Positions 963 to 23,812 of a stretch of 23,812 bases of DNA are shown here, piece after piece. Location: positions 1 to 23,812 of the forward strand of contig JAEOUG010000142.1 in the NCBI GenBank assembly GCA_016839445.1, in the 5' to 3' direction. How positions within the stretch are numbered: position 1 is the stretch's first letter; each line of letters opens with the position of its first letter. The notes below the pieces were generated by a model. The model had not been told where the DNA came from. It saw nothing but the letters and a program-made list of their open reading frames with translations, and searched no databases. Source of the DNA: Candidatus Thorarchaeota archaeon (GTDB lineage: Archaea; Asgardarchaeota; Thorarchaeia; Thorarchaeales; Thorarchaeaceae). A program made the translations under genes and the position numbers.

Positions 963-1793
963 TTGCAGATTGGATTGGAATGGACACTATTCTACGCCTT
1001 GATCTTCATTGGTGTCATCATCCTGTTATGGTTCATCAGTGGAATCAAGATCCTGAAGGATTGGGAACGCGTGGCCATCTTGAGACTGGGCAAGTTCAAG
1101 GGAATAGACGGACCAGGCATTATCTGGATTGCCAGCGGGCTAGACCAGATAGCCATGAAGGTCTCTGTACGACTTCTGACCTATGCCTTCAAAACCGAGA
1201 GATCTCTGACGAAGGATAACGTCCCCGTGGTTGTGGACGCTGTCATGTACTTCAAGGTCGTTGACGTGGAGAAAGCCATCCTCGGAGTTGAGAGGTACAC
1301 CGTGGCAGTAGAACTGGCAGCACAGACTACACTCAGGGAAACCATTGGTAAGGTTACACTTGACGAGCTCCTCTCTGAAAGGGACACAATCGCACAGCAC
1401 CTTCAGGAGCTCATCGATGAGAAGACGGAGCACTGGGGCGTGAAGGTCACCTCGGTCGAGATACGCGATGTCGTCATACCCTCGGCGCTGCAGGACTCAA
1501 TGAGCAGAGAGGCACAAGCAGAGAGGGAGCGCAGAGCGCGAATCACTCTGGCAAGAGCAGAGCAGGAGGCCTCTGAGGCCATGCTGAAGGCCGCAAAGAG
1601 CTATGAGGAATCCACTGTCGGCCTAACGCTAAGAACCTGGAACATCATGCAAGAGATATCTAAGAACGCCAACCTGATCATCATGGTTCCGACCAACATA
1701 CCAGAGGTGGGGCTGGCTGCAGGTTCAGCAGTGGCGATTGGCGCAGGCACTGGTGGACTTCGCGTACCTAAGAACAAGGGCACCGACGAGTGA
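963..1793 (+). CDS. SPFH/band-7 (stomatin-like) protein
   Basis: N-terminal TM; 'WERVAILRLGK', 'LTKDNVPVVVDAVMYFKV', 'AQTTLRETIG', 'WGVKVTSVEIRDV', 'QAERERRARI'. TTG start after AAGGAG. Confidence 0.95.
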   Translation: MQIGLEWTLFYALIFIGVIILLWFISGIKILKDWERVAILRLGKFKGIDGPGIIWIASGLDQIAMKVSVRLLTYAFKTERSLTKDNVPVVVDAVMYFKVVDVEKAILGVERYTVAVELAAQTTLRETIGKVTLDELLSERDTIAQHLQELIDEKTEHWGVKVTSVEIRDVVIPSALQDSMSREAQAERERRARITLARAEQEASEAMLKAAKSYEESTVGLTLRTWNIMQEISKNANLIIMVPTNIPEVGLAAGSAVAIGAGTGGLRVPKNKGTDE

Positions 1794-1817
1794 TATCAGG
1801 AAAGGGGTGATTAGAAG

Positions 1818-2519
1818 ATGGAAGCCTGGCTGAAGATCTTCGTGGTCATGATAATGCTCTCTGTGATCAGCTTCGTGGCCACATGGGTTCTCACAGACCC
1901 CTTCATGGGGCTAATCCTCCTCGCGGTCCTCCTAACTCTTCTAGTGCTCACTGTAGAACCGGCAACGGGAAAGGCGATGTCCCAGGTGACAGTCCCAATT
2001 GTCATCATGCTGTTTGTGATGCAGGTACTTCTGAACCCAGGATTCGTGTTTGACGTCTGGACGTTGGCGATCATAGGAATCCTGTTGTACTTCATGTTCA
2101 CCCTGTTCACTGGCGGGAGCAGCTTCATGGAGGGCGCCTTCATCGACGCCAAGATGTCCCTGAAACTCCTCCCAGCCTACGCAGCAGCCATCATCATCTC
2201 AATGGTAATGGATCGAACCAATCGGATGACTGTCTTTATCATGGCCGGGACTTCCCTCTTCCTGATGGGGATCTACTTCTCCTTCCTACGGGACTATGAC
2301 AAGTGGCCCGCCTACTCCCAGTATCAGTACAGTGACATCAGAGCAATCACGGACATCAACCCCAAGGGAAAAGTGAAGACTGGAGCAGAGATCTGGTGGG
2401 CGAGAACTGCAGGACCACCAATCAAGGCAGGAGAAGAGGTTGTGATTGTGACGATTTCTGGGCTCACCATGGTAGTAAGGCGTCCAGATGACATCACAGT
2501 CTCTGAGCAGGACCAGTAA
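1818..2519 (+). CDS. NfeD-family membrane protein (TM bundle plus C-terminal OB fold, no protease domain)
   Basis: C-terminal 'GKVKTGAEIWWART..PIKAGEEVVIVTISGLTMVVR' is the NfeD OB-fold pattern; adjacent to stomatin; GGTGA RBS. Confidence 0.85.
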   Translation: MEAWLKIFVVMIMLSVISFVATWVLTDPFMGLILLAVLLTLLVLTVEPATGKAMSQVTVPIVIMLFVMQVLLNPGFVFDVWTLAIIGILLYFMFTLFTGGSSFMEGAFIDAKMSLKLLPAYAAAIIISMVMDRTNRMTVFIMAGTSLFLMGIYFSFLRDYDKWPAYSQYQYSDIRAITDINPKGKVKTGAEIWWARTAGPPIKAGEEVVIVTISGLTMVVRRPDDITVSEQDQ

Positions 2520-10292: not shown

Positions 10293-10530
10293 ACCTCATC
10301 GATTCAATCTCCGAGACCTGCCCCTCGACTCTCGTCAGACGAATCTCAACTTGGTCAATGGTTTCCCTGAGAGAACTCAGCCGCATTGTGATCTCTTGTA
10401 TGCCGCCAGTATGATCATCGGTGGCCAGTTGCTGAATCTCGCTCCACATCTGCTCAAGCAGGCTCAGCCCTTTCTCTATCTCCTTCAGGGTCTCTGTAAG
10501 GCTCCTCGTTTCTTCTGCCATCACTATCAT
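10270..10530 (-). CDS. Small coiled-coil protein
   Basis: Two heptad-rich helices; start overlaps the upstream stop (ATG at 10530, alternative ATG at 10521); 3' end overlaps the convergent 886-aa gene by 23 nt. Confidence 0.7.
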   Translation of the reverse strand: MIVMAEETRSLTETLKEIEKGLSLLEQMWSEIQQLATDDHTGGIQEITMRLSSLRETIDQVEIRLTRVEGQVSEIESMRFRIRSGL

Positions 10531-11672
10531 CCCATGTTTTTGGTCAACCTCGACAGCCGCTCCTCCAACATCTTCAGACGGCTGGTCAGATCTTCGAGTC
10601 GTTCCTGCGTTTCGTTGAATCTGTGTACGATTTGAGCTGCCGCCTGATCGTTCGGCTGGCCCACACTACCAGATGACTTCTGACGGTTCTCGAGAGCTGC
10701 AAGCCGCCTCTGAATGTCATCTACAGGGATGGCTCTCAGTCGAGAGGCAAGACTCGCCACGTCGTCTTCCAACTTGGTGCGTGCTTTGCCACCTTCCTCC
10801 ACTCGTGGCTTCAATGGTTTGTTGGCCCTCTCAATGGTCACCTCAGGAGTAGCCTCGTCCATCTTTGTTTCCTTATCAAATGATGCCCAAAGAGGAGCCA
10901 GATAGTGGGCAATCAATCTGTCGAATTCTACATTCGAGGTGTAGGCAAAGGTCACCGTTTCCGCGGGACCATCCCACAAACAAAGAACGGCTGTTTCGGC
11001 ACTACTCAAGAGTAAAGAGGCAACAGGTGTACGCATGTCCTTGAAGACACGGAGGGCGGTCAGCCACCGAGCGAGCAAGGGGGCAAGATCTTCGAGTACA
11101 ATGACTTGGCCATCCTTCTCGATTCTGCCATCTCCAAGACTCTGTATCCACTTCGTGAACTTGGTCTTCTTGTCCGGGATTGCCAGGCTTAGAAAGCCCT
11201 CCAGTTTGCCTTCGATTCGGTCCTTCCTCATCTGTTCCAGATAGTCGAGCTGAATCTCTGTGCTGCTCGTGAATGCACCTTTTCCCAGTAGAATGGCAGC
11301 CGGTGCCACGATATCTCGTTTCGTAGTGGACACTCCTATAGCTACTGGTGTGTCCTGCCCCTTCCACGTTTCTGTTCCTACGATAGCGGCAATCCGAGAG
11401 TTCGCAGGTGGTGCTCCACCAATCATGAAGACGCCACGAGAGAATTGACTTCCCACCTTCTTGTCTGAGAGAAGCCGGACAAGACGGTCAGTGGGAATAG
11501 ACAAGTTGAGCCGAACATCTGATTCGTTCAAGACGGCGGCGTTCGAGCTTAGAAGGATGTTCTCCTCCAGCCATCCTGTTTCTAGGAACCCTGATGGAAC
11601 CCTCGTGACAATGAAGCTTGAAACGAGGCCCCGCCTTTCCAGGGTCCTAAGGGTGTTCTCAAGATTCGTCAC
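10527..11672 (-). CDS. Hypothetical alpha/beta protein with C-terminal coiled coil
   Basis: 381-aa ORF whose GTG abuts the upstream TAG; C-terminal heptads 'LEDDVASLASRL', 'RLEDLTSRLKMLEERLSRL'. Confidence 0.75.
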   Translation of the reverse strand: MTNLENTLRTLERRGLVSSFIVTRVPSGFLETGWLEENILLSSNAAVLNESDVRLNLSIPTDRLVRLLSDKKVGSQFSRGVFMIGGAPPANSRIAAIVGTETWKGQDTPVAIGVSTTKRDIVAPAAILLGKGAFTSSTEIQLDYLEQMRKDRIEGKLEGFLSLAIPDKKTKFTKWIQSLGDGRIEKDGQVIVLEDLAPLLARWLTALRVFKDMRTPVASLLLSSAETAVLCLWDGPAETVTFAYTSNVEFDRLIAHYLAPLWASFDKETKMDEATPEVTIERANKPLKPRVEEGGKARTKLEDDVASLASRLRAIPVDDIQRRLAALENRQKSSGSVGQPNDQAAAQIVHRFNETQERLEDLTSRLKMLEERLSRLTKNMG

Positions 11673-12797
11673 CTAACCACCTCGGGCCGTCCGATTGCTG
11701 AGGCTGTATACTGCATTACTTATGTCTTCGTTACTATCAATCTTTAGCAGGATGCCTTGTACTTGCTCAGCCATTGCCTCAAGGATATCGGATTGAACTC
11801 CAGTGCCACAGTACAAGAAGAAGAATGTCGTATCCGAGAGCCCCTGACCCCTTCTGATGGTCTTGACAGGATTTGGCCCTGAGCTAAATACTCCGCTTGA
11901 GAGGACGACCACTGCAATCGGCAATCTGTTCTCTGCCCGAATCCTCTCGGCGATTCGAACAGCATCAGATACTGCATCTCCCAGATTTGATGTGCTTCGC
12001 TTGCTGTGTGCAAGCAATTCCTCAACCCAGTTGCTATAGGCGGCAATCACAGAGGCGGACTCCAGAAATGAGACCTCACTTGGTTCGCCCGTTTCTGAGT
12101 CAAATGTAGAGAATGTGTGAACCTCTTCTGAAAAGCCCAGTCCGGAGAACTTGGCTCCGCCTCCAAGCCCACTGAAGGACTCGCCAAGCAAATCCAGGAA
12201 GTGCAAGTAGTTGGAGTATCTGGGTGCTGCCTCTGCTCCACCACAGTCCTCGATGTGAGAAGAACCCCCAAGTTCGCTGACTACAACAAGATTGGAGGGA
12301 GTGATTCCAGCCTGGGGAACCAAGCGGATGCTCTCAAGTTGCTTCCATAGCACGCGCCCTGGAGATCTTGGTCGAACCTCAACAACTGAGAAAGCCAGAT
12401 CGAGACGGGTCACCACAAGATTGTCGCCAGCAGCGAGAATGAGACCCTCGAAGTCTTCTCGGAGATCATTGACTCTCTTTGAAATGGCATCGGCCACCTT
12501 CATGTTGTCAAGCCCCCGTGTCGACCGCAAGCTCATCACTAATTGCGACATGTCATGAAGGGTATCTTCGTAGATGGAGAGGACCACTTCGTCATTCTCG
12601 TTGAGAGCAAGTCTGTCGAAGAGCCGAGAATCGATGACAACCGAACCTTCAGGAACGCGCGAGTCACTTCTGACATCAGCAAGGCATCGAAGGGGTCCTG
12701 CTTCGATTGCGCACACCTTGCGGTCAAGCTGCGAGTGTGAACTCGAAACGAAACAGATGCCCTTCTGATTGCGTCCCCGCCTTGCGTGCAGAACCAT
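11673..12797 (-). CDS. Cdc48N-like + degenerate vWA protein (paralogue of 4658-5950)
   Basis: EGSVVIDSRLFDRLALNENDEVVLSIYED vs QDQIVIDTLVLEASLLMEGDEVEVTLFDE; FSTFDSETGE vs MTFLDSESGE; VVLSSGVFSSGPNPVK vs ILLTDGMTTSGPPPLK. DxSxS is replaced by ELGGS. ATG at 12797 follows AGGTG. Confidence 0.8.
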   Translation of the reverse strand: MVLHARRGRNQKGICFVSSSHSQLDRKVCAIEAGPLRCLADVRSDSRVPEGSVVIDSRLFDRLALNENDEVVLSIYEDTLHDMSQLVMSLRSTRGLDNMKVADAISKRVNDLREDFEGLILAAGDNLVVTRLDLAFSVVEVRPRSPGRVLWKQLESIRLVPQAGITPSNLVVVSELGGSSHIEDCGGAEAAPRYSNYLHFLDLLGESFSGLGGGAKFSGLGFSEEVHTFSTFDSETGEPSEVSFLESASVIAAYSNWVEELLAHSKRSTSNLGDAVSDAVRIAERIRAENRLPIAVVVLSSGVFSSGPNPVKTIRRGQGLSDTTFFFLYCGTGVQSDILEAMAEQVQGILLKIDSNEDISNAVYSLSNRTARGG

Positions 12798-12807
12798 CTG
12801 TATACAC

Positions 12808-13920
12808 CTAGAAGATTCGTGTCTGATAGATGCCTGATGCCAGAGAGCGAGAACCATAGTAGACTTCGATTCGCATGGTTGCCTTGCCCTTTGTGTCTGT
12901 CATGGGCACTAGTTTGAGGCTCAGTGTCTGATTGGACTTCCCTCCAATCTCATGGCGCTCATTTGTGACTTCAGATACACCTTCATCCGTAACCAGAGAA
13001 GCGATTACTCGGATCCCAATGACTGTAGGACTTGGGTTTCGCACGTTGATTTGGTAGTTGAACGCCTTGCCGGAAACAATATTGTTCGGCACTTGACCGA
13101 GTTCCACTTCGAGGCCCATTGATGATGGACTAATCGGTCGCCCCTTCGGCCATCTCGGAATGTGACCGAGCTCGAGTAGTCGTGACAGTGATGTCTTCAG
13201 GTCTCGAAGATCCATCTTCAGAGATGCAGCGGCTTCTGCCATGTCGAATGAGCCATCATTCGCCTGATAGAAGGACAGGACCTTCCTATCTCCGATGATT
13301 AGATCTCCAACGTCCTCCAGAATCTCAAGAATTGCCTTCGGAAGCTCTCCCGCCTCCAGAAGAGTGTAGTACTTGCCTCCGTCGACGGCCCCAGCAATCT
13401 TTCTGAATGAGTCTTCAACCAATGGATTGCAGCCACACACGAAGATGAATACAGTAGAGCCGAAGTCCCTTCTTAGTTCTTTGACCTCCTCAATGGGGTC
13501 GTAGCCGCTTGGACAGCCGTTAGGGAAGTAGTCGTCAGATATCTGGTTATATTGCCGCCCATGCGGAGGAGCATCGCCAACTAGCAGAACTACCTTGTAG
13601 GAGTCAGCATCCCATGACAGCTTCACACGGGCATCGTGGAGGCCATCAGCTACCGCCTCTGGAGTGTCGCCACCTTCGGACGGCTTCAACTCTGCAATGC
13701 GCTTCTGTACTCTCTTCACTTTGTTGTCGAAGTCGGCAACCTGAGTTACGTATGTCTTGTCTTGTGGGGGGTGGTCCCTGTATGACACAACGCCAAAACG
13801 AATCTCTAGGTCACTTGTCCTCTTGGTCACCTGCTGAACTATGTCGAATAGACTGTCTTTGACTGCACGAATGTCATCCTTCATGGAACCAGTTGTGTCT
13901 ACGACAAATGCCACATCCAT
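12808..13920 (-). CDS. vWA (intact MIDAS) + winged helix + Ig-like/CARDB-like domain protein
   Basis: 'DVAFVVDTTGSM', 'GVVSYRDHPPQD', 'GGDTPEAVADGL', 'LSW', 'LVGDAPPHG'; wHTH 'FDMAEAAASLKMDLRDLKTSLSRLLELGHI'; beta-rich C-terminus 'FNYQINVRNPS...GKATMRIEVYY'. Start ATG 13920, or CTG 13935. Confidence 0.85.
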   Translation of the reverse strand: MDVAFVVDTTGSMKDDIRAVKDSLFDIVQQVTKRTSDLEIRFGVVSYRDHPPQDKTYVTQVADFDNKVKRVQKRIAELKPSEGGDTPEAVADGLHDARVKLSWDADSYKVVLLVGDAPPHGRQYNQISDDYFPNGCPSGYDPIEEVKELRRDFGSTVFIFVCGCNPLVEDSFRKIAGAVDGGKYYTLLEAGELPKAILEILEDVGDLIIGDRKVLSFYQANDGSFDMAEAAASLKMDLRDLKTSLSRLLELGHIPRWPKGRPISPSSMGLEVELGQVPNNIVSGKAFNYQINVRNPSPTVIGIRVIASLVTDEGVSEVTNERHEIGGKSNQTLSLKLVPMTDTKGKATMRIEVYYGSRSLASGIYQTRIF

Positions 13921-14037
13921 CTTCGTAAGGGGCAGTCCTATCCACTCCAGCTCCAGCAACCCCCCAGCGCAATTAAGCGTTTGCCGGTCGGCCGCAGAAC
14001 ACAGCACATTTTAGGATAGACTCTTCGAAGATGAAAC

Positions 14038-14427
14038 ATGGTCGACCTAAGTGACACGGATGTCTACCTTACGTTCCGCTTCGAGGATGGCACCGAACTC
14101 AAGGGAACCATCAATAGAATACACGCACCGCTGCTGGTGGAGGAGATCAAGTCCAGGCTTCCCATAGGTGGTAAGGCAACCTTCCTCAGAGGGGAGATGA
14201 AGATAACGCTCGATATCGGCAAAGGATACGCCAAGCCCACATCACAAGCGAAGAGGGGGGACATCGCCTACATGCCACTCGGAGACTCTCTGTGCATATA
14301 CCTGGAGGACATGACTACCTTCTCGAAGATCAACATTCTTGGCAGGGTGATATCAGATGATGCAGAACTGGATAGCATATCATCAGTTCGAAGAGGGAGC
14401 GGCGTCACGATTGAAGAGTCCAAGTAG
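14038..14427 (+). CDS. Cyclophilin-like fold protein (TM1367/DUF369-like)
   Basis: 'APLLVEEIKSRLPI', 'GDIAYMPLGDSLCIY', 'INILGRV'. Confidence 0.78.
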   Translation: MVDLSDTDVYLTFRFEDGTELKGTINRIHAPLLVEEIKSRLPIGGKATFLRGEMKITLDIGKGYAKPTSQAKRGDIAYMPLGDSLCIYLEDMTTFSKINILGRVISDDAELDSISSVRRGSGVTIEESK

Positions 14428-14438
14428 GAGAACAGAAC

Positions 14439-14990
14439 TCAGAGCCGCCGAAGATTCTTGAGTAGGTTCTCATTCGGATCTGACTCGATTTCAGCAGGGT
14501 CCACAACCAACCCGGCTTCGTGTGTTTCAATGAGTACCTCTATCCCAGAGTGCTCCACTTTCTTGATTCCTGTTCCTGACAGAGCCCTGATCCGGAGTTG
14601 CGTGGTGGCAAACTCAGTCTTGTCAGCGGTCTCGATTGTCTTCACATCCCTGCGCAGCTTTGTCCGGGCAATCCTCAGTTGCTCTTTCAACTCGGCAACT
14701 TGCACTTGCAGTGCCTTCCTCTGTTCGCTCTCATCACCGAGCTGGCCGCGCAGCTGATCGAACTCAGTCTTTGGGACCTGTTCTTTCGACCTATCAATCC
14801 AAGTGACAGTTGTGCCGTCAAACTTCCGAGTCGTCTCGACCTGATCAAGAGCTTTCAACACGGCAATAATATCATACACGCGCCTCTTCGGGCTATCCAA
14901 CGTGGCCGCGAGGTCCTCGCTTTTGATACCCTCTTCCCCACAATCCTGGAGAATCTTCAAAGCCTCCCGAGCAAGATTGACCAGCTTCAA
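14439..14990 (-). CDS. E2F/DP-family-like transcription factor (wHTH + coiled coil + marked-box-like segment)
   Basis: 'LAATLDSPKRRVYDIIAVLKAL...TVTWI' carries the RRxYD signature (14871-14888), followed by a coiled coil and 'FATTQLRIRALSGTGI'. Confidence 0.82.
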   Translation of the reverse strand: MKLVNLAREALKILQDCGEEGIKSEDLAATLDSPKRRVYDIIAVLKALDQVETTRKFDGTTVTWIDRSKEQVPKTEFDQLRGQLGDESEQRKALQVQVAELKEQLRIARTKLRRDVKTIETADKTEFATTQLRIRALSGTGIKKVEHSGIEVLIETHEAGLVVDPAEIESDPNENLLKNLRRL

Positions 14991-15282
14991 CTGTGCACCC
15001 CACTATGTGCTTGGCGGCGGGCTCCGAAGAGCACATTCCCATCTCTAATGATGCACCGCGCATTTAGGTGTTTGTATCATACTTCTAAAGACTTCTAGTA
15101 AATCTCTCCGATTTCGAAAAAACGACAAAGGACATGATTACGAATAATCGTAGCTCCGATTTATCGTGGTGAGGACCACATTTGCTCTCGTAGAACACTC
15201 AGTGACTAGACCAAAGATTTCTTAACTTGCCCTAGGGGTCCGACCTCACATCTCAACACACCCCCCGGGAGTGGAGACCACG

Positions 15283-16614
15283 ATGAGCAAGAAGAAAGTC
15301 ATAATCATGGGTGCAGCAGGACGCGACTTCCACAACTTCAACGTTCATTTCAGAGACAACGAAGACTACGAAGTTGTAGCTTTCACGGCGGAGCAGATTC
15401 CTGGTATTGGCGACAGGATATATCCACCAGAGCTGTCCGGTCCATTGTATCCAGACGGTATCAAGATCTATCCGGAAGAGATGCTACCCGAACTGGTTGA
15501 GAAGTATGATGTCGAGCAATGCATACTCGCCTATTCAGACCTGCCGCATGAGGTCGTTGGGCACAAGATTGCTTGGGTCAACAAACTGGGCCCAGACATG
15601 AGGCTCATGGGACCCAAGACGACAATGATTCAGAGCAAGAAGCCCGTAGTGGCAGTGTGTGCAGTTCGTACTGGTTGCGGTAAGAGCCAGACATCGAGGA
15701 GAGTGAACCAAATCCTCGTTGACATGGGACTGAAGCCAGTGAATATTCGACACCCTATGCCATACGACCCTGATCTAACGACTCAGATTGCACAGCGGTA
15801 TGAGAAGCTCGAAGACATGGACAAGTACAGGTGCACAATCGAAGAGCGTGAAGAATACGAGCCCATGATTAACATGGGAGTGATTCTGTACGCAGGAGTC
15901 GATTACGGAAGAATCATTGAGCAGGCAGAAAAGGAAGCGGACGTCATCACTTGGGACGGTGGCAATAACGACTTCCCGTTCTACAAGCCAGACCTGCTGA
16001 TTGTCATTGCAGACCCACACCGGCCAAGCCACGAGATACTGTACTACCCAGGGGAAACCAACCTGAGGATGGCGGACGTGGTGATTATCAACAAGATAGA
16101 CACCGCTGACTACGAAGACGTCGAAGAAGTGCGAGAGAACATCATGATTGTAAACCCCACGGCCACGATTGTCGATGCGGCCTCACCACTGACCATTGAC
16201 GACATGGAATCCATCAAAGGAAAGAGAGTAATCGTGGTGGAAGATGGTCCGACTGTGACACATGGAGAGATGCCCTACGGAGCTGGATACATAGCTGCTC
16301 GCAAGGCAGGCGCAATCATAGTTGACCCCCGACCGTTTGCGGTAGGGAGCATAGAGCAAACCTTCGAGAAGTACTCTCATCTAGAGGACGTACTCCCGGC
16401 CATGGGCTATGGGAAGAAGCAGACAGCCGAACTGGAGAAGACTATCAATAATGCAGATGTTGACGCGGTTGTGATAGGCACGCCAATCGACTTGACGAGA
16501 ATAGTCAAGATATCGAAACCGAGCGTTCGTGTCCGCTACGACCTTCAGGAAATCGGAAGACCCAACCTGGATGATGTCTTGAAGGAATTCGTTAGGAAGC
16601 ATGGTCTGAAATAG
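15283..16614 (+). CDS. arcE: Arginine synthetase (ArcE)-like / cDPGS-like P-loop protein (COG2403)
   Basis: 'MGAAGRDFHNFN', 'VVAFTAEQIP', P-loop 'AVRTGCGKS', 'RHPMPY', 'TIEEREEYEP', 'WDGGNND', 'VEDGPT', 'LPAMGY'. ATG at 15283 follows GGAG. Confidence 0.8.
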   Translation: MSKKKVIIMGAAGRDFHNFNVHFRDNEDYEVVAFTAEQIPGIGDRIYPPELSGPLYPDGIKIYPEEMLPELVEKYDVEQCILAYSDLPHEVVGHKIAWVNKLGPDMRLMGPKTTMIQSKKPVVAVCAVRTGCGKSQTSRRVNQILVDMGLKPVNIRHPMPYDPDLTTQIAQRYEKLEDMDKYRCTIEEREEYEPMINMGVILYAGVDYGRIIEQAEKEADVITWDGGNNDFPFYKPDLLIVIADPHRPSHEILYYPGETNLRMADVVIINKIDTADYEDVEEVRENIMIVNPTATIVDAASPLTIDDMESIKGKRVIVVEDGPTVTHGEMPYGAGYIAARKAGAIIVDPRPFAVGSIEQTFEKYSHLEDVLPAMGYGKKQTAELEKTINNADVDAVVIGTPIDLTRIVKISKPSVRVRYDLQEIGRPNLDDVLKEFVRKHGLK

Positions 16615-22585: not shown

Positions 22586-23398
22586 TCAGCCGATGTACGA
22601 GTCAGGCGGGTGCGTTCCCTCGCCCGAGTCGTCTCTACTGGTCACTTCCTTGCGTGCCCACTCGATGAATTCTATGACTTTCGAGATCTCAGTATCGATT
22701 ACATCGAAGTGCGCCTTGAGACCTATCAGGGAGGATATGTTCTCAAGGAGAGCCTTGGCAGCCCTGTAATCCACCTTTATGATTCCCAAGGTTTCACCCA
22801 GTAGACAGGCACTCTCGATGTCATACATGGATGAAGCCCATGCAGGAACGATACCGTTTGCACCTACAACCATTCCCTCCTCGGTGGTTACTGAGCCCTG
22901 AATGGAGGAGATCTTGGCGAGAAGCCGCTCTGAGCTTGCAGAAACGTACATCCGAGGAGGCGACGGGTATGATTCGAAGTATTCACTGTAGCCTTGTTCA
23001 TAGGCGGCCAGGGCATAGACTTCCTTGACATCAAGAGCGGATAGCTCTCCTGCAACGAAGTCCGCGTACTCGAAGACTCCACTTCCGGACGATGGCTGGA
23101 AGTCGGCGGTGAGAGTGAGAACATCATGAGGCTCGTCTGGCGCCGCTCTATAGAGATGGATTGTGGACTTGGGCACTCTGGCTATGCCCTGCTGCACAAT
23201 GACGCGTGGTGGGAAGTCACTGCTGAAGAAGTCCATCACATGTTCCGCCTCAAGTACATGAACCAGTGTTTCGACAGCCACCTTGCCCACATTGGCGATG
23301 CCAGGGAGACCTACTACTGCAACCGGGGATTTCAGGGATTGGCTCTCAAGGTTCACGAAACGGCGCTTGTACATACTCTGTATATCGGGAGTAGGCAT
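22586..23398 (-). CDS. PAC2-family proteasome assembly chaperone-like protein
   Basis: 'VGLPGIANVGKVA', 'SSDFPP', 'ADFQP', 'CLLGET', 'DYRAAKALL', C-terminal 'YIG'; ATG at 23398. Confidence 0.88.
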   Translation of the reverse strand: MPTPDIQSMYKRRFVNLESQSLKSPVAVVGLPGIANVGKVAVETLVHVLEAEHVMDFFSSDFPPRVIVQQGIARVPKSTIHLYRAAPDEPHDVLTLTADFQPSSGSGVFEYADFVAGELSALDVKEVYALAAYEQGYSEYFESYPSPPRMYVSASSERLLAKISSIQGSVTTEEGMVVGANGIVPAWASSMYDIESACLLGETLGIIKVDYRAAKALLENISSLIGLKAHFDVIDTEISKVIEFIEWARKEVTSRDDSGEGTHPPDSYIG

Positions 23399-23411
23399 TT
23401 GGCAGTATCGG

Positions 23412-23812
23412 TCACAAGCGGTAGAATCTGATCGCGTTTTCTGTCGTAGCCTGAGCAACATCATCTATCGGGATGTTCAGAATCTCACCCAACGTTTCCG
23501 CCCCGTAGAGGATGTTGGCTGGTTCATTCCTTTCTGGGGTAGGTGACAAGTACGGGCCATCGCTTTCGAGCATTATCTGAGAGAGCGGCACAACCTTGGC
23601 GGCCTCAACTCGATTCCGGTACTTGCCGAAGTTGGCTGGCAGGGTGATGTACCAACCATTGTCGGCAACGACCTGGGCAACATCGTTCGGACCGTCGAAG
23701 CAATGCATCAGGACATCACCGCTGTAGGTGCTCTCAAGGATTGAACATGCCTCCTGCTCCGACTTCCTCGAGTGAATGACAATCGGCTTCTCGAGTTCCA
23801 TGGCAAGCTCTA
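23412..23812 (-). CDS. tatD: TatD-family nuclease, 5' end outside the window
   Basis: 'PIVIHSR', 'MHCFDG', 'LESDGPYL', 'RNEPAN', 'TTENAIRFY'; frame open to the window edge. Confidence 0.92.
   Translation of the reverse strand, partial: ELAMELEKPIVIHSRKSEQEACSILESTYSGDVLMHCFDGPNDVAQVVADNGWYITLPANFGKYRNRVEAAKVVPLSQIMLESDGPYLSPTPERNEPANILYGAETLGEILNIPIDDVAQATTENAIRFYRL

Follow-up and report, generated by a model that had tools for sequence, protein, structure and literature searches.

The window analysed here, a 23,812-nucleotide stretch of a Candidatus Thorarchaeota contig, contains a small E2F-like gene on the reverse strand (positions 14439..14990, stop codon included), the ORF of which encodes 183 amino acids from a TTG start. 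This start agrees with the N-termini of the family, which read MKLV, LKLV or VKLV, and just 5′ of it lies the ribosome-binding-like sequence TGGGGTGC (14995..15002, reverse strand), which contains GGGGTG at 14996-15001 and is found in 55 of 79 upstream regions. The ORF and every motif named in a preliminary description of this DNA were found at the coordinates given here and below. The protein has 168 homologues, the best 120 of which show 57-100% identity over 92-100% of the query, and the 43-member alignment of the E2F-like family used in this work spans down to 21% identity.

Two genes on the forward strand flank the E2F-like gene. The convergent neighbour (14038..14427) encodes a cyclophilin-like protein of 129 aa (Pfam PF04126, 38 bits compared to a cut-off of 27) and is single copy in the genome. 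Of 80 loci, 74 have it directly beside the E2F-like gene; 9 of the 12 distant loci are among these, and at two distant loci (L073 and L076) it is located upstream on the same strand. Adjacency by coordinates is likewise seen in 10 genomes from three other Asgard families. The divergent neighbour (15271..16614) encodes a P-loop GTPase-like protein of 447 aa with weak CobW/HypB matches; 64 of 80 loci have it upstream, every one of these belonging to the 68 close (Thorarchaeota-type) loci and none to the 12 distant ones.

The divergent intergenic region contains a T-run/CG/A-run near-palindrome, TTTTTTCGAAA (15112..15122), which may be a promoter element (BRE-like) or an operator. As a half element, ATTTTTCG occurs in 51 of 79 upstream regions, and the full T3-7 CG A3-7 form in 22 of 65. 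Among 8-mers containing GCGC or CGCG 5′ of the E2F-like gene, none is found in at least 8 of 79 regions, so nothing there points to an autoregulatory site of the E2F type; this search concerns the gene's own upstream region and is silent on target sites.

An E2F/DP-type winged helix

Residues 3-65 of the protein (14796..14984, reverse strand) form a winged helix of the E2F/DP type. The Pfam profile E2F_TDP (PF02319) matches with 35.3 bits compared to a curated cut-off of 25.7 (E = 9.7e-9), a profile search of the genome gives the same span, and AlphaFold2 (AF2) models these residues with a pLDDT of 84-91. The recognition helix carries the motif KRRVYD (K35-R36-R37-V38-Y39-D40; 14871..14888, reverse strand), of which R36, R37, Y39 and D40 are invariant in the 43 family members. 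RRxYD is the motif that contacts DNA in the E2F4-DP2-DNA structure. The wing tryptophan W64 (14799..14801, reverse strand), within T61-V62-T63-W64-I65, is also invariant (n = 43) and is paired by hhalign with the E2F wing Trp. The protein is thus an E2F/DP-family winged-helix protein with an invariant RRxYD motif.

The preliminary description had set this assignment against membership in the archaeal TrmB regulators. An ordinary TrmB/MarR-like winged-helix regulator, in which RRxYD and the E2F_TDP score are convergent or result from profile cross-talk, would be in line with the weak TrmB (PF01978) matches in 30 of the 43 members and with fold searches, in which MarR, ArsR and Z-alpha winged helices outrank E2F chains. 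We nonetheless consider this explanation very improbable. E2F_TDP matches all 43 members with a best E of 2e-10, compared to 5.2e-6 for TrmB, and the Thorarchaeota protein itself has no TrmB match at E ≤ 10. Aligned alone with eukaryotic E2F, the winged helix reaches an hhalign E of 6.4e-13; searches of PDB sequences with the protein and with the family profile found E2F8 and E2F4 as the only natural DNA-binding proteins; and an E2F_TDP search in 14 control genomes returned 0 matches. Finally, the family profile has 59 matches at E ≤ 0.001 among 1.84 billion representatives. All 30 that were scanned with Pfam carry E2F_TDP, those outside the family are eukaryotic E2Fs, and for none of the 30 is TrmB or MarR the best-scoring family.

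The same scan does not bear out the 'DP-like' character that had been read into the recognition motif: the 19 eukaryotic matches scanned are of E2F or double-winged-helix types without a Pfam DP domain, and no DP domain was found in any of the 30 scanned matches at E ≤ 0.01 or 0.001.

A coiled coil collinear with the E2F leucine zipper

Directly after the winged helix, heptad analysis and profile alignment identify a coiled coil of five heptads that runs collinear with the eukaryotic E2F leucine zipper. The leucine-zipper-like helix spans residues 74-115 (14646..14771, reverse strand) and is modelled by AF2 as a single helix with a pLDDT of up to 96. Its heptad repeat covers about residues 77-112, with L80, L84, L94, V98, L101, L105 and L112 in a/d positions; of 135 family rows, 124-135 have a hydrophobic residue at each of these. 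The coiled coil of about 35 aa noted earlier is therefore well borne out by its conserved heptad positions and by the single predicted helix.

Aligned as profiles, the family and eukaryotic E2F match with a probability of 98.1% (E = 8.3e-14) over residues 5-110 versus 37-140, with one small gap. The archaeal zipper alone aligned to the E2F zipper still gives an E of 9.2e-5 in an unchanged register, at a probability of 59%, a score that may be inflated by coiled-coil composition. Because the coiled coil after the wing is collinear with the E2F zipper, the dimerisation module is kept in part. The earlier proposal that the whole module is kept holds for the zipper, and finds no support from sequence for the marked box (see below). 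It counts against the E2F reading that regulators outside the E2F family can likewise consist of a winged helix followed by a coiled coil; BusR and TrmBL2, which do, are present in the Foldseek lists.

A native, single-copy gene across Asgard archaea

The E2F-like gene is a native archaeal, single-copy and Asgard-wide gene. The family is found in Thor-, Hermod-, Hel-, Odin-, Baldr- and Hodarchaeota records. E2F_TDP has one match in the genome studied here, which is 89.8% complete, and most of the 139 Asgard genomes that are positive for the profile likewise have a single match.

The contig is archaeal: the neighbours are 60-89% identical to Thorarchaeota MAGs. In our tree, which was built without DP sequences and without broad TrmB/MarR outgroups, the Thorarchaeota protein falls within an archaeal clade of 20 rows (SH-aLRT 99), and a single branch (SH-aLRT 96) lies between archaeal rows and eukaryotic E2Fs. 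This topology supports a native archaeal gene; the preliminary description had asked for a phylogeny to exclude transfer from eukaryotes. The short archaeal paralogues P0164, P0173 and P0176 lie between the E2F-like family and the eukaryotic E2Fs in the same tree. Another sequence, P0162, was considered as an archaeal 'missing link' and rejected, its relatives being named Tritrichomonas E2Fs.

We also searched for Rb-like proteins. RB_A has no match in the genome, nor in the control genomes, and RB_B gives weak matches of about 18-20 bits, below the cut-off, in four frames of 282-412 aa.

The C-terminal module and the marked-box question

After the zipper, a conserved module of about 45 residues is predicted to form four short beta strands. 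This beta module (residues 126-165; 14496..14615, reverse strand) starts with the conserved Phe127, and AF2 with a broad alignment places the strands at residues 132-136, 142-147, 152-156 and 161-165 (pLDDT 75-83). F127, G160 and P165 are the only tail residues that are invariant in the wide family alignment. On its own, the module is matched in 103 of 400 Asgard genomes, with one match each except in three, and in frames of at most 267 aa. The protein ends in an acidic stretch followed by a predicted amphipathic helix (residues 172-182; 14445..14477, reverse strand; AF2 pLDDT 65-69), which is kept in Thorarchaeota rows; 10 distant rows lack it or have basic or unrelated tails in its place. 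As had been pointed out before, the 183-aa protein contains no transactivation or Rb-binding tail.

The position of the beta module is that of the marked box in eukaryotic E2Fs, the domain that docks pocket proteins. The preliminary description had compared the segment from F127 to T140 (nt 14571-14612 by translation) with a marked-box segment of E2F4. That segment was given correctly: human E2F4 chain 5tuu_B reads f-a-g-d-t-l-l-a-i-r-a-p-s-g-t, and the archaeal IRALSGT agrees with IRAPSGT at 6 of 7 positions, with a one-residue gap. The homology drawn from it finds no support in profile searches, profile alignments, shuffles or conservation. The likeness of the IRA.SGT motif is not above chance at the family level, and its SGT is limited to close relatives. 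The profiles E2F_CC-MB (PF16421) and DP (PF08781), whose use had been suggested as a check, give no match at E ≤ 10 in the protein or its genome, and neither is among the 25 Pfam families listed for the 43 members. E2F_CC-MB is above the cut-off in 0 of 400 Asgard genomes.

Direct comparisons of the tail gave the same result. Tail-only hhalign runs against two eukaryotic marked-box profiles gave P 0.46, 0.34 and 0.34 in three different best registers, whereas the positive control, parabasalid versus other eukaryotic marked boxes, reaches 98% (E = 2.8e-13) at 22% identity. A marked-box HMM scored the real tails no better than 100 shuffles of each (mean z -0.14, n = 22 sequences). No CC-MB chain came up when the protein, its family profile or the tail profile was searched against PDB sequences, and the sole row for the tail profile is a KH-like stretch of archaeal CPSF (E = 1.4). 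As far as sequence comparison can tell, the tail is not detectably a marked-box fold by descent.

Two further sets of alignments were set aside. With relaxed settings (-mact 0.1/0.05), hhalign alignments reach into the tail with minimal confidence and in inconsistent registers, and we rejected them as support. The other set consists of weak matches to E2F_CC-MB, which occur in seven Asgard genomes; two of the three frames from family f23 (L084 and L088) were read, and neither shows a visible E2F-type recognition motif.

Fold searches with Foldseek (PDB, both models) and VIA-align (48,161 chains) returned winged-helix matches together with whole-length, low-TM matches to BusR and TrmBL2, and no CC-MB chain among the matches listed. 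Because the winged helix filled these lists and the tail was barely probed, we do not take the fold searches as evidence on the tail.

What, then, is the tail? One reading, which we hold as a possibility and not as our expectation, is that it is a true marked box, in which case the protein would have the full E2F/DP layout as an Asgard homodimer from before the E2F/DP duplication. This reading is suggested by a protein-language-model look-up, in which residues 108-183 have two E2F_CC-MB clusters at the top (0.78 and 0.77, below the trust level) and the tail of the 28%-identical member P0132 (residues 112-175) retrieves the same two clusters (0.79 and 0.76); these scores are under 0.8, a level that a third of shuffled proteins reach, and the tool is uncalibrated for protein parts. 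The four short strands and tight turns of the AF2 model, directly after the zipper, would also fit one sheet of a two-chain sandwich, as which E2F4-DP1 is described in PMC12154468. In addition, IRALSGT resembles IRAPSGT of human E2F4, the best local tail alignment of one hhalign run falls on this segment, and the parabasalid E2Fs show that a viable E2F can have this layout in about 175 aa. Against it stand the negative profile, alignment and shuffling results above. We can only tentatively propose that the ancestral marked box persists in the four-strand tail, having diverged past sequence recognition, and that E2F and DP are duplicated descendants of the complete module.

The tail may instead be an unrelated, Asgard-specific ligand-sensing or partner-binding domain, whose partner is possibly the cyclophilin-like product, with nothing beyond the winged helix, and perhaps the zipper, in common with E2F. 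Such a protein would be built like regulators of the BusR/TrmB type, from a winged helix, a coiled coil and an effector domain. Every sequence test for a marked box being negative is consistent with such a domain, as are the low-TM Foldseek superposition of the whole model onto BusR chains of the same layout and the conserved adjacency of the cyclophilin-like gene. Nonetheless, about 45 residues and four strands are small for a ligand-binding domain, the tail matches no known domain, and the language-model lead points to E2F_CC-MB instead. Moreover, the cyclophilin-like family is common where the E2F-like gene is absent: in two Asgard families it is found in 104 of 135 and 20 of 22 genomes, compared to 3 of 135 and 0 of 22 for E2F_TDP. 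We hold an unrelated domain, too, as a possibility and not as our expectation. Whatever its descent, the tail probably has the role of a marked box, providing a second dimer contact and a partner surface.

A model and its implications

On balance, we favour the view that the protein belongs to a family of small transcription factors of the E2F type that is spread across the Asgard archaea and is composed of a winged helix, a zipper and a beta module, and that it likely acts as a homodimer. Since the gene is single copy and the searches turned up no DP-like partner, the most likely form would be a homodimer in which the zipper joins two parallel chains; the genome is incomplete (89.8%), so a second partner gene could still exist. 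Judging from the monomer model, the two four-stranded sheets might pack on each other or on a partner protein, and the pair of winged helices would recognise a DNA site with two-fold symmetry.

E2F/DP together with Rb constitutes the core switch for S-phase entry in eukaryotes. Published work already mentions E2F-like winged helices in Asgard genomes. To this our work adds a defined family, with proteins of about 180 aa and a single-copy gene, that occurs in many Asgard classes; a zipper common to the archaeal family and E2F, beyond the DNA-binding domain; a conserved beta module where the marked box would be; and a conserved gene partner for the E2F-like gene. In the main texts surveyed, we found no published account of the coiled coil, tail, copy number or neighbourhood of Asgard E2F homologs.

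If the tail is a diverged marked box, a complete E2F-type module of DNA-binding domain, zipper and sandwich would predate eukaryotes in homodimeric form, and the cyclophilin-like neighbour would be a candidate partner recruited by it. At the same time, the negative sequence results caution against naming the archaeal protein a full E2F. The analysis raises testable questions: whether the protein dimerises through zipper and sheet, whether it binds a symmetric GC-core site, which genes it regulates, and whether a regulator docks on the tail.

Comparison with known systems

The overall layout is like that of BusR/TrmB-type regulators, which have a winged helix, a coiled coil and a C-terminal effector domain, and Foldseek aligns 175-224 columns to BusR chains, at a TM of 0.25-0.29 and an rmsd of 17-20 Å. 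Unlike these regulators, the archaeal protein has a winged helix from another family and carries neither RCK_C nor the TrmB sugar-binding domain.

With eukaryotic E2F1-6 (E2F_TDP plus E2F_CC-MB), the protein shares the winged helix, including RRxYD and the tryptophan of the wing, a coiled coil that starts about 12 residues past the wing in the same register, and the order of winged helix, zipper and short beta-rich part. Unlike E2F1-6, it has no detectable marked-box sequence and no transactivation or pocket-protein-binding tail, its gene is single copy with no DP partner gene found in the genome, and that genome has no RB_A match and only weak, sub-cut-off RB_B matches.

The parabasalid minimal E2Fs (Tritrichomonas-type, 153-197 aa) resemble the archaeal protein in size, in the three-part layout and in having no further tail, and the winged helices of the two align with an hhalign probability of 98% (E = 2.5e-13). 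In contrast to the archaeal protein, 28 of 28 of these E2Fs carry Pfam E2F_CC-MB, and their marked box aligns to that of other eukaryotes at E 2.8e-13 compared to a P of 0.34 for the archaeal tail. Within the archaea, E2F homologs have been reported in some Asgard genomes, according to a review (PMC7617429), and the E2F-like gene described here belongs to this reported set.

An E2F-family transcription factor

The window protein is an Asgard E2F-family transcription factor that shares both its DNA-binding domain and its zipper with eukaryotic E2F, and it most likely acts as a homodimer. It is encoded at 14439..14990 on the minus strand as an open reading frame of 183 aa, whose TTG start is consistent with the N-termini of its homologues; a GGGGTG motif can be read from the sequence on the same strand, 5′ of the start (14996-15001). 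The translation confirms the motifs picked out in the preliminary description: K35-RRVYD-40 at residues 35-40, TVTWI at residues 61-65 and F127 to T140 at nt 14571-14612, exactly as claimed. According to one review (PMC7617429), E2F homologs have been reported from some Asgard genomes. In the literature searched, supplements aside, we found no description of the family's domain architecture, of its zipper or tail, or of its gene neighbourhood.

Residues 3-65 score 35.3 bits against Pfam E2F_TDP (cut-off 25.7) and TrmB has no match at E<=10, which bears out the E2F-like winged helix proposed earlier. All 43 members of the broad alignment match E2F_TDP, with identities to the window protein down to 21%; 30 of the 43 also match TrmB, more weakly. 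The sole invariant columns are R36, R37, Y39, D40, W64 and G21. PDB sequence searches with the protein and its profile found E2F8 and the E2F4 DNA-binding domain, and beyond these designed proteins and coiled coils only.

Against all 1.84 billion representatives, the family profile gave just 59 matches at E<=0.001, and E2F_TDP is present in all 30 that were scanned with Pfam. Among these 30, the family-length proteins are archaeal-type and the rest eukaryotic-type E2Fs. Seven eukaryotic-type matches (P0156, P0160, P0163, P0165, P0162, P0169 and P0174) carry the dimerisation domain E2F_CC-MB above cut-off, several others are double-winged-helix forms, and the Pfam DP domain occurs in 0/30 at the E-value limits used.

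Distribution and origin

A word-indexed search returned 168 homologues. The best 120 of these are 57-100% identical at 92-100% query coverage and 169-228 aa long, and their source names are all Candidatus Thorarchaeota except one Promethearchaeota (five carry JGI function labels only). Relatives are encoded in 93 stretches of species-representative genomes, of which 80 were kept: mainly Thorarchaeota, together with others whose record titles name Hermod-, Hel-, Odin-, Baldr- and Hodarchaeota and Asgardarchaeum. The contig of locus L073 is assigned to a bacterial MAG (Deferrimicrobium), yet it holds an Asgard-type pair of E2F-like and cyclophilin-like genes; mis-binning of an Asgard contig is probable.

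The source genome (2.91 Mb, 190 contigs, 89.8% complete, 6.5% contaminated; the window is its contig C116) has one E2F_TDP match. Across 400 Asgard genomes, E2F_TDP is found in 139 (136 above cut-off), usually once per genome and in frames of 119-260 aa; three sub-cut-off matches and one other weak match are in longer frames (261-336 aa). None of 14 control genomes was positive. The spread by Asgard family is patchy (f1, 75/85; f14, 17/19; f22, 3/135; f8, 0/31; f11, 0/22). Genes neighbouring the E2F-like gene are 60-89% identical to their counterparts in Thorarchaeota MAGs, and the contig is archaeal.

We built a quick maximum-likelihood tree from 45 hand-picked rows and 170 columns, leaving all other proteins out (23 archaeal-type rows; 22 eukaryotic-type, assigned by name or by E2F_CC-MB presence). 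A single branch splits archaeal from eukaryotic rows (SH-aLRT 96), and the window protein is nested in a 20-row archaeal clade (support 99). Based on distribution and tree placement, the gene is native to Asgard archaea and no recent import.

Some Asgard genomes, including ones of families f10 and f28, encode a second, shorter E2F_TDP protein of 113-152 aa without the family's zipper and tail; in this tree such proteins (P0164, P0173 and P0176) are placed between the window protein's family and eukaryotic E2Fs. They may be more closely related to eukaryotic E2F/DP, or may be partners. Parabasalid E2Fs, at 153-197 aa, show that tail-less minimal E2Fs are kept in eukaryotes too.

Gene neighbourhood and upstream regions

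The E2F-like gene has a convergent cyclophilin-like gene on one side and a divergent gene of P-loop GTPase-like type on the other, and stands alone between them. The single-copy cyclophilin-like gene (14038-14427, plus strand; PF04126, 38 bits) lies tail-to-tail with it and adjoins it in 74 of 80 loci (L002-L081), including 9 of 12 distant ones; in two distant loci, L073 and L076, it is upstream on the same strand. By coordinates, the two genes are also adjacent in families f6, f16 and f28 (10 genomes). This cross-class conservation of the pair suggests a functional link. The link is one-sided, since the cyclophilin-like family is the more widespread (289/400 Asgard genomes, including families without E2F_TDP).

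Beside the cyclophilin-like gene lies a co-directional block (10527-14007, minus strand) made up of one VWA-domain gene and two ORFs that match no Pfam family; it is conserved there in 59, 41 and 39 of 80 loci. The other window genes (SPFH/NfeD, Rce1-like, HEAT, VWA, amidohydrolase and PAC2) suggest no cell-cycle theme; the PAC2 (proteasome assembly chaperone) family gene (22586-23464, minus strand) and the SPFH/NfeD pair (963-2519, plus strand) are ordinary archaeal content.

Upstream of the E2F-like genes, a ribosome-binding-like TGGGGTGC is conserved in 55/79 regions. The divergent intergenic region also contains a T-run/CG/A-run near-palindrome (15112-15122), with a half-site in 51/79 upstream regions and the full form in 22/65, which may represent back-to-back promoter elements or an operator. 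No conserved GC-core motif was found in the 79 regions.

The zipper

AlphaFold2 predicts a single long helix, at 74-123 with a Thorarchaeota-only alignment and at 74-115 with the broad alignment, with pLDDT up to 96. Hydrophobic residues occupy its single-register a/d positions (L80, L84, L94, V98, L101, L105 and L112) in 124-135 of 135 rows. When these 135 archaeal rows were compared with 123 eukaryotic E2F rows by hhalign, residues 5-110 aligned to residues 37-140 of the eukaryotic-type P0165 (98.1%, E 8.3e-14), winged helix and zipper forming one collinear block. The winged helix alone gave E 6.4e-13. The zipper alone gave E 9.2e-5 and a probability of 59%, shifted on either side by one position relative to the domain boundary. 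On these profile alignments we take the zipper as common to the Asgard family and E2F, with the caveat that, in profile comparisons, one coiled coil draws in another.

Is the tail a marked box?

The tail is strongly conserved in the family. With the broad alignment, AlphaFold2 gives strands at 132-136, 142-147, 152-156 and 161-165 and a helix at 172-182 (pLDDT 75-83); this C-terminal helix is kept in Thorarchaeota rows and missing or replaced in 10 distant rows (L070-L080). The tail profile alone matches 103/400 Asgard genomes in frames <=267 aa, once per genome in all but three.

It had been proposed that this tail is the marked box of E2F, and every sequence test of the proposal was negative. 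Neither the E2F_CC-MB nor the DP HMM found anything at E<=10 in the window protein or its genome, and the 25 families listed for the 43 members include neither. E2F_CC-MB was above cut-off in 0/400 Asgard genomes, with weak matches in seven. Against E2Fs of red algae, plants and oomycetes, tail-only hhalign gave P 0.46 (P 0.34 after recutting), and against parabasalid E2Fs P 0.34, with the best local alignment at a different location each time. The positive control, parabasalid against other eukaryotic marked boxes, reached 98% and E 2.8e-13 at 22% identity and is decisive for the method. Scored with a marked-box HMM, 22 archaeal tails did no better than 100 shuffles each (mean z -0.14, three tails without any score being set to -20). 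The E2F4 segment given in the preliminary description was correct, IRALSGT matching the human IRAPSGT at 6/7 positions; the SGT, however, is restricted to close relatives, and across the wider family the sequence at this site is quite different.

Three of the weakly matching frames belong to one Asgard family, f23, whose 330-364-aa proteins match the E2F_CC-MB profile over nearly its full length at 19 bits. Of the two frames that were read (L084 943-1932 and L088 1261-2355), neither has a visible E2F-type recognition motif, and each adjoins a conserved gene of ~300 aa.

In the proposal's favour, an ESM Atlas feature look-up with residues 108-183 only ranked two E2F_CC-MB clusters first (0.78, 0.77), and the same two came up (0.79, 0.76) for the tail of P0132, a family member with 28% overall identity; scores <0.9 are leads, 0.8 is attained by a third of shuffled proteins, and parts of proteins are uncalibrated. 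Nonetheless, the look-up names the expected family out of 7.7 million clusters, which is a lead. With no sequence test in support, we consider it rather unlikely that the window protein also keeps the marked box, and the question is a structural one.

Four short strands with tight turns right after a parallel zipper would form one amphipathic sheet per chain. In distant members without the C-terminal helix such a sheet would need a packing surface, most obviously the twin chain. E2F4-DP1, as described in PMC12154468, has a coiled-coil subdomain and a beta-sandwich subdomain, both heterodimeric, which the Asgard zipper and putative paired sheets would mirror.
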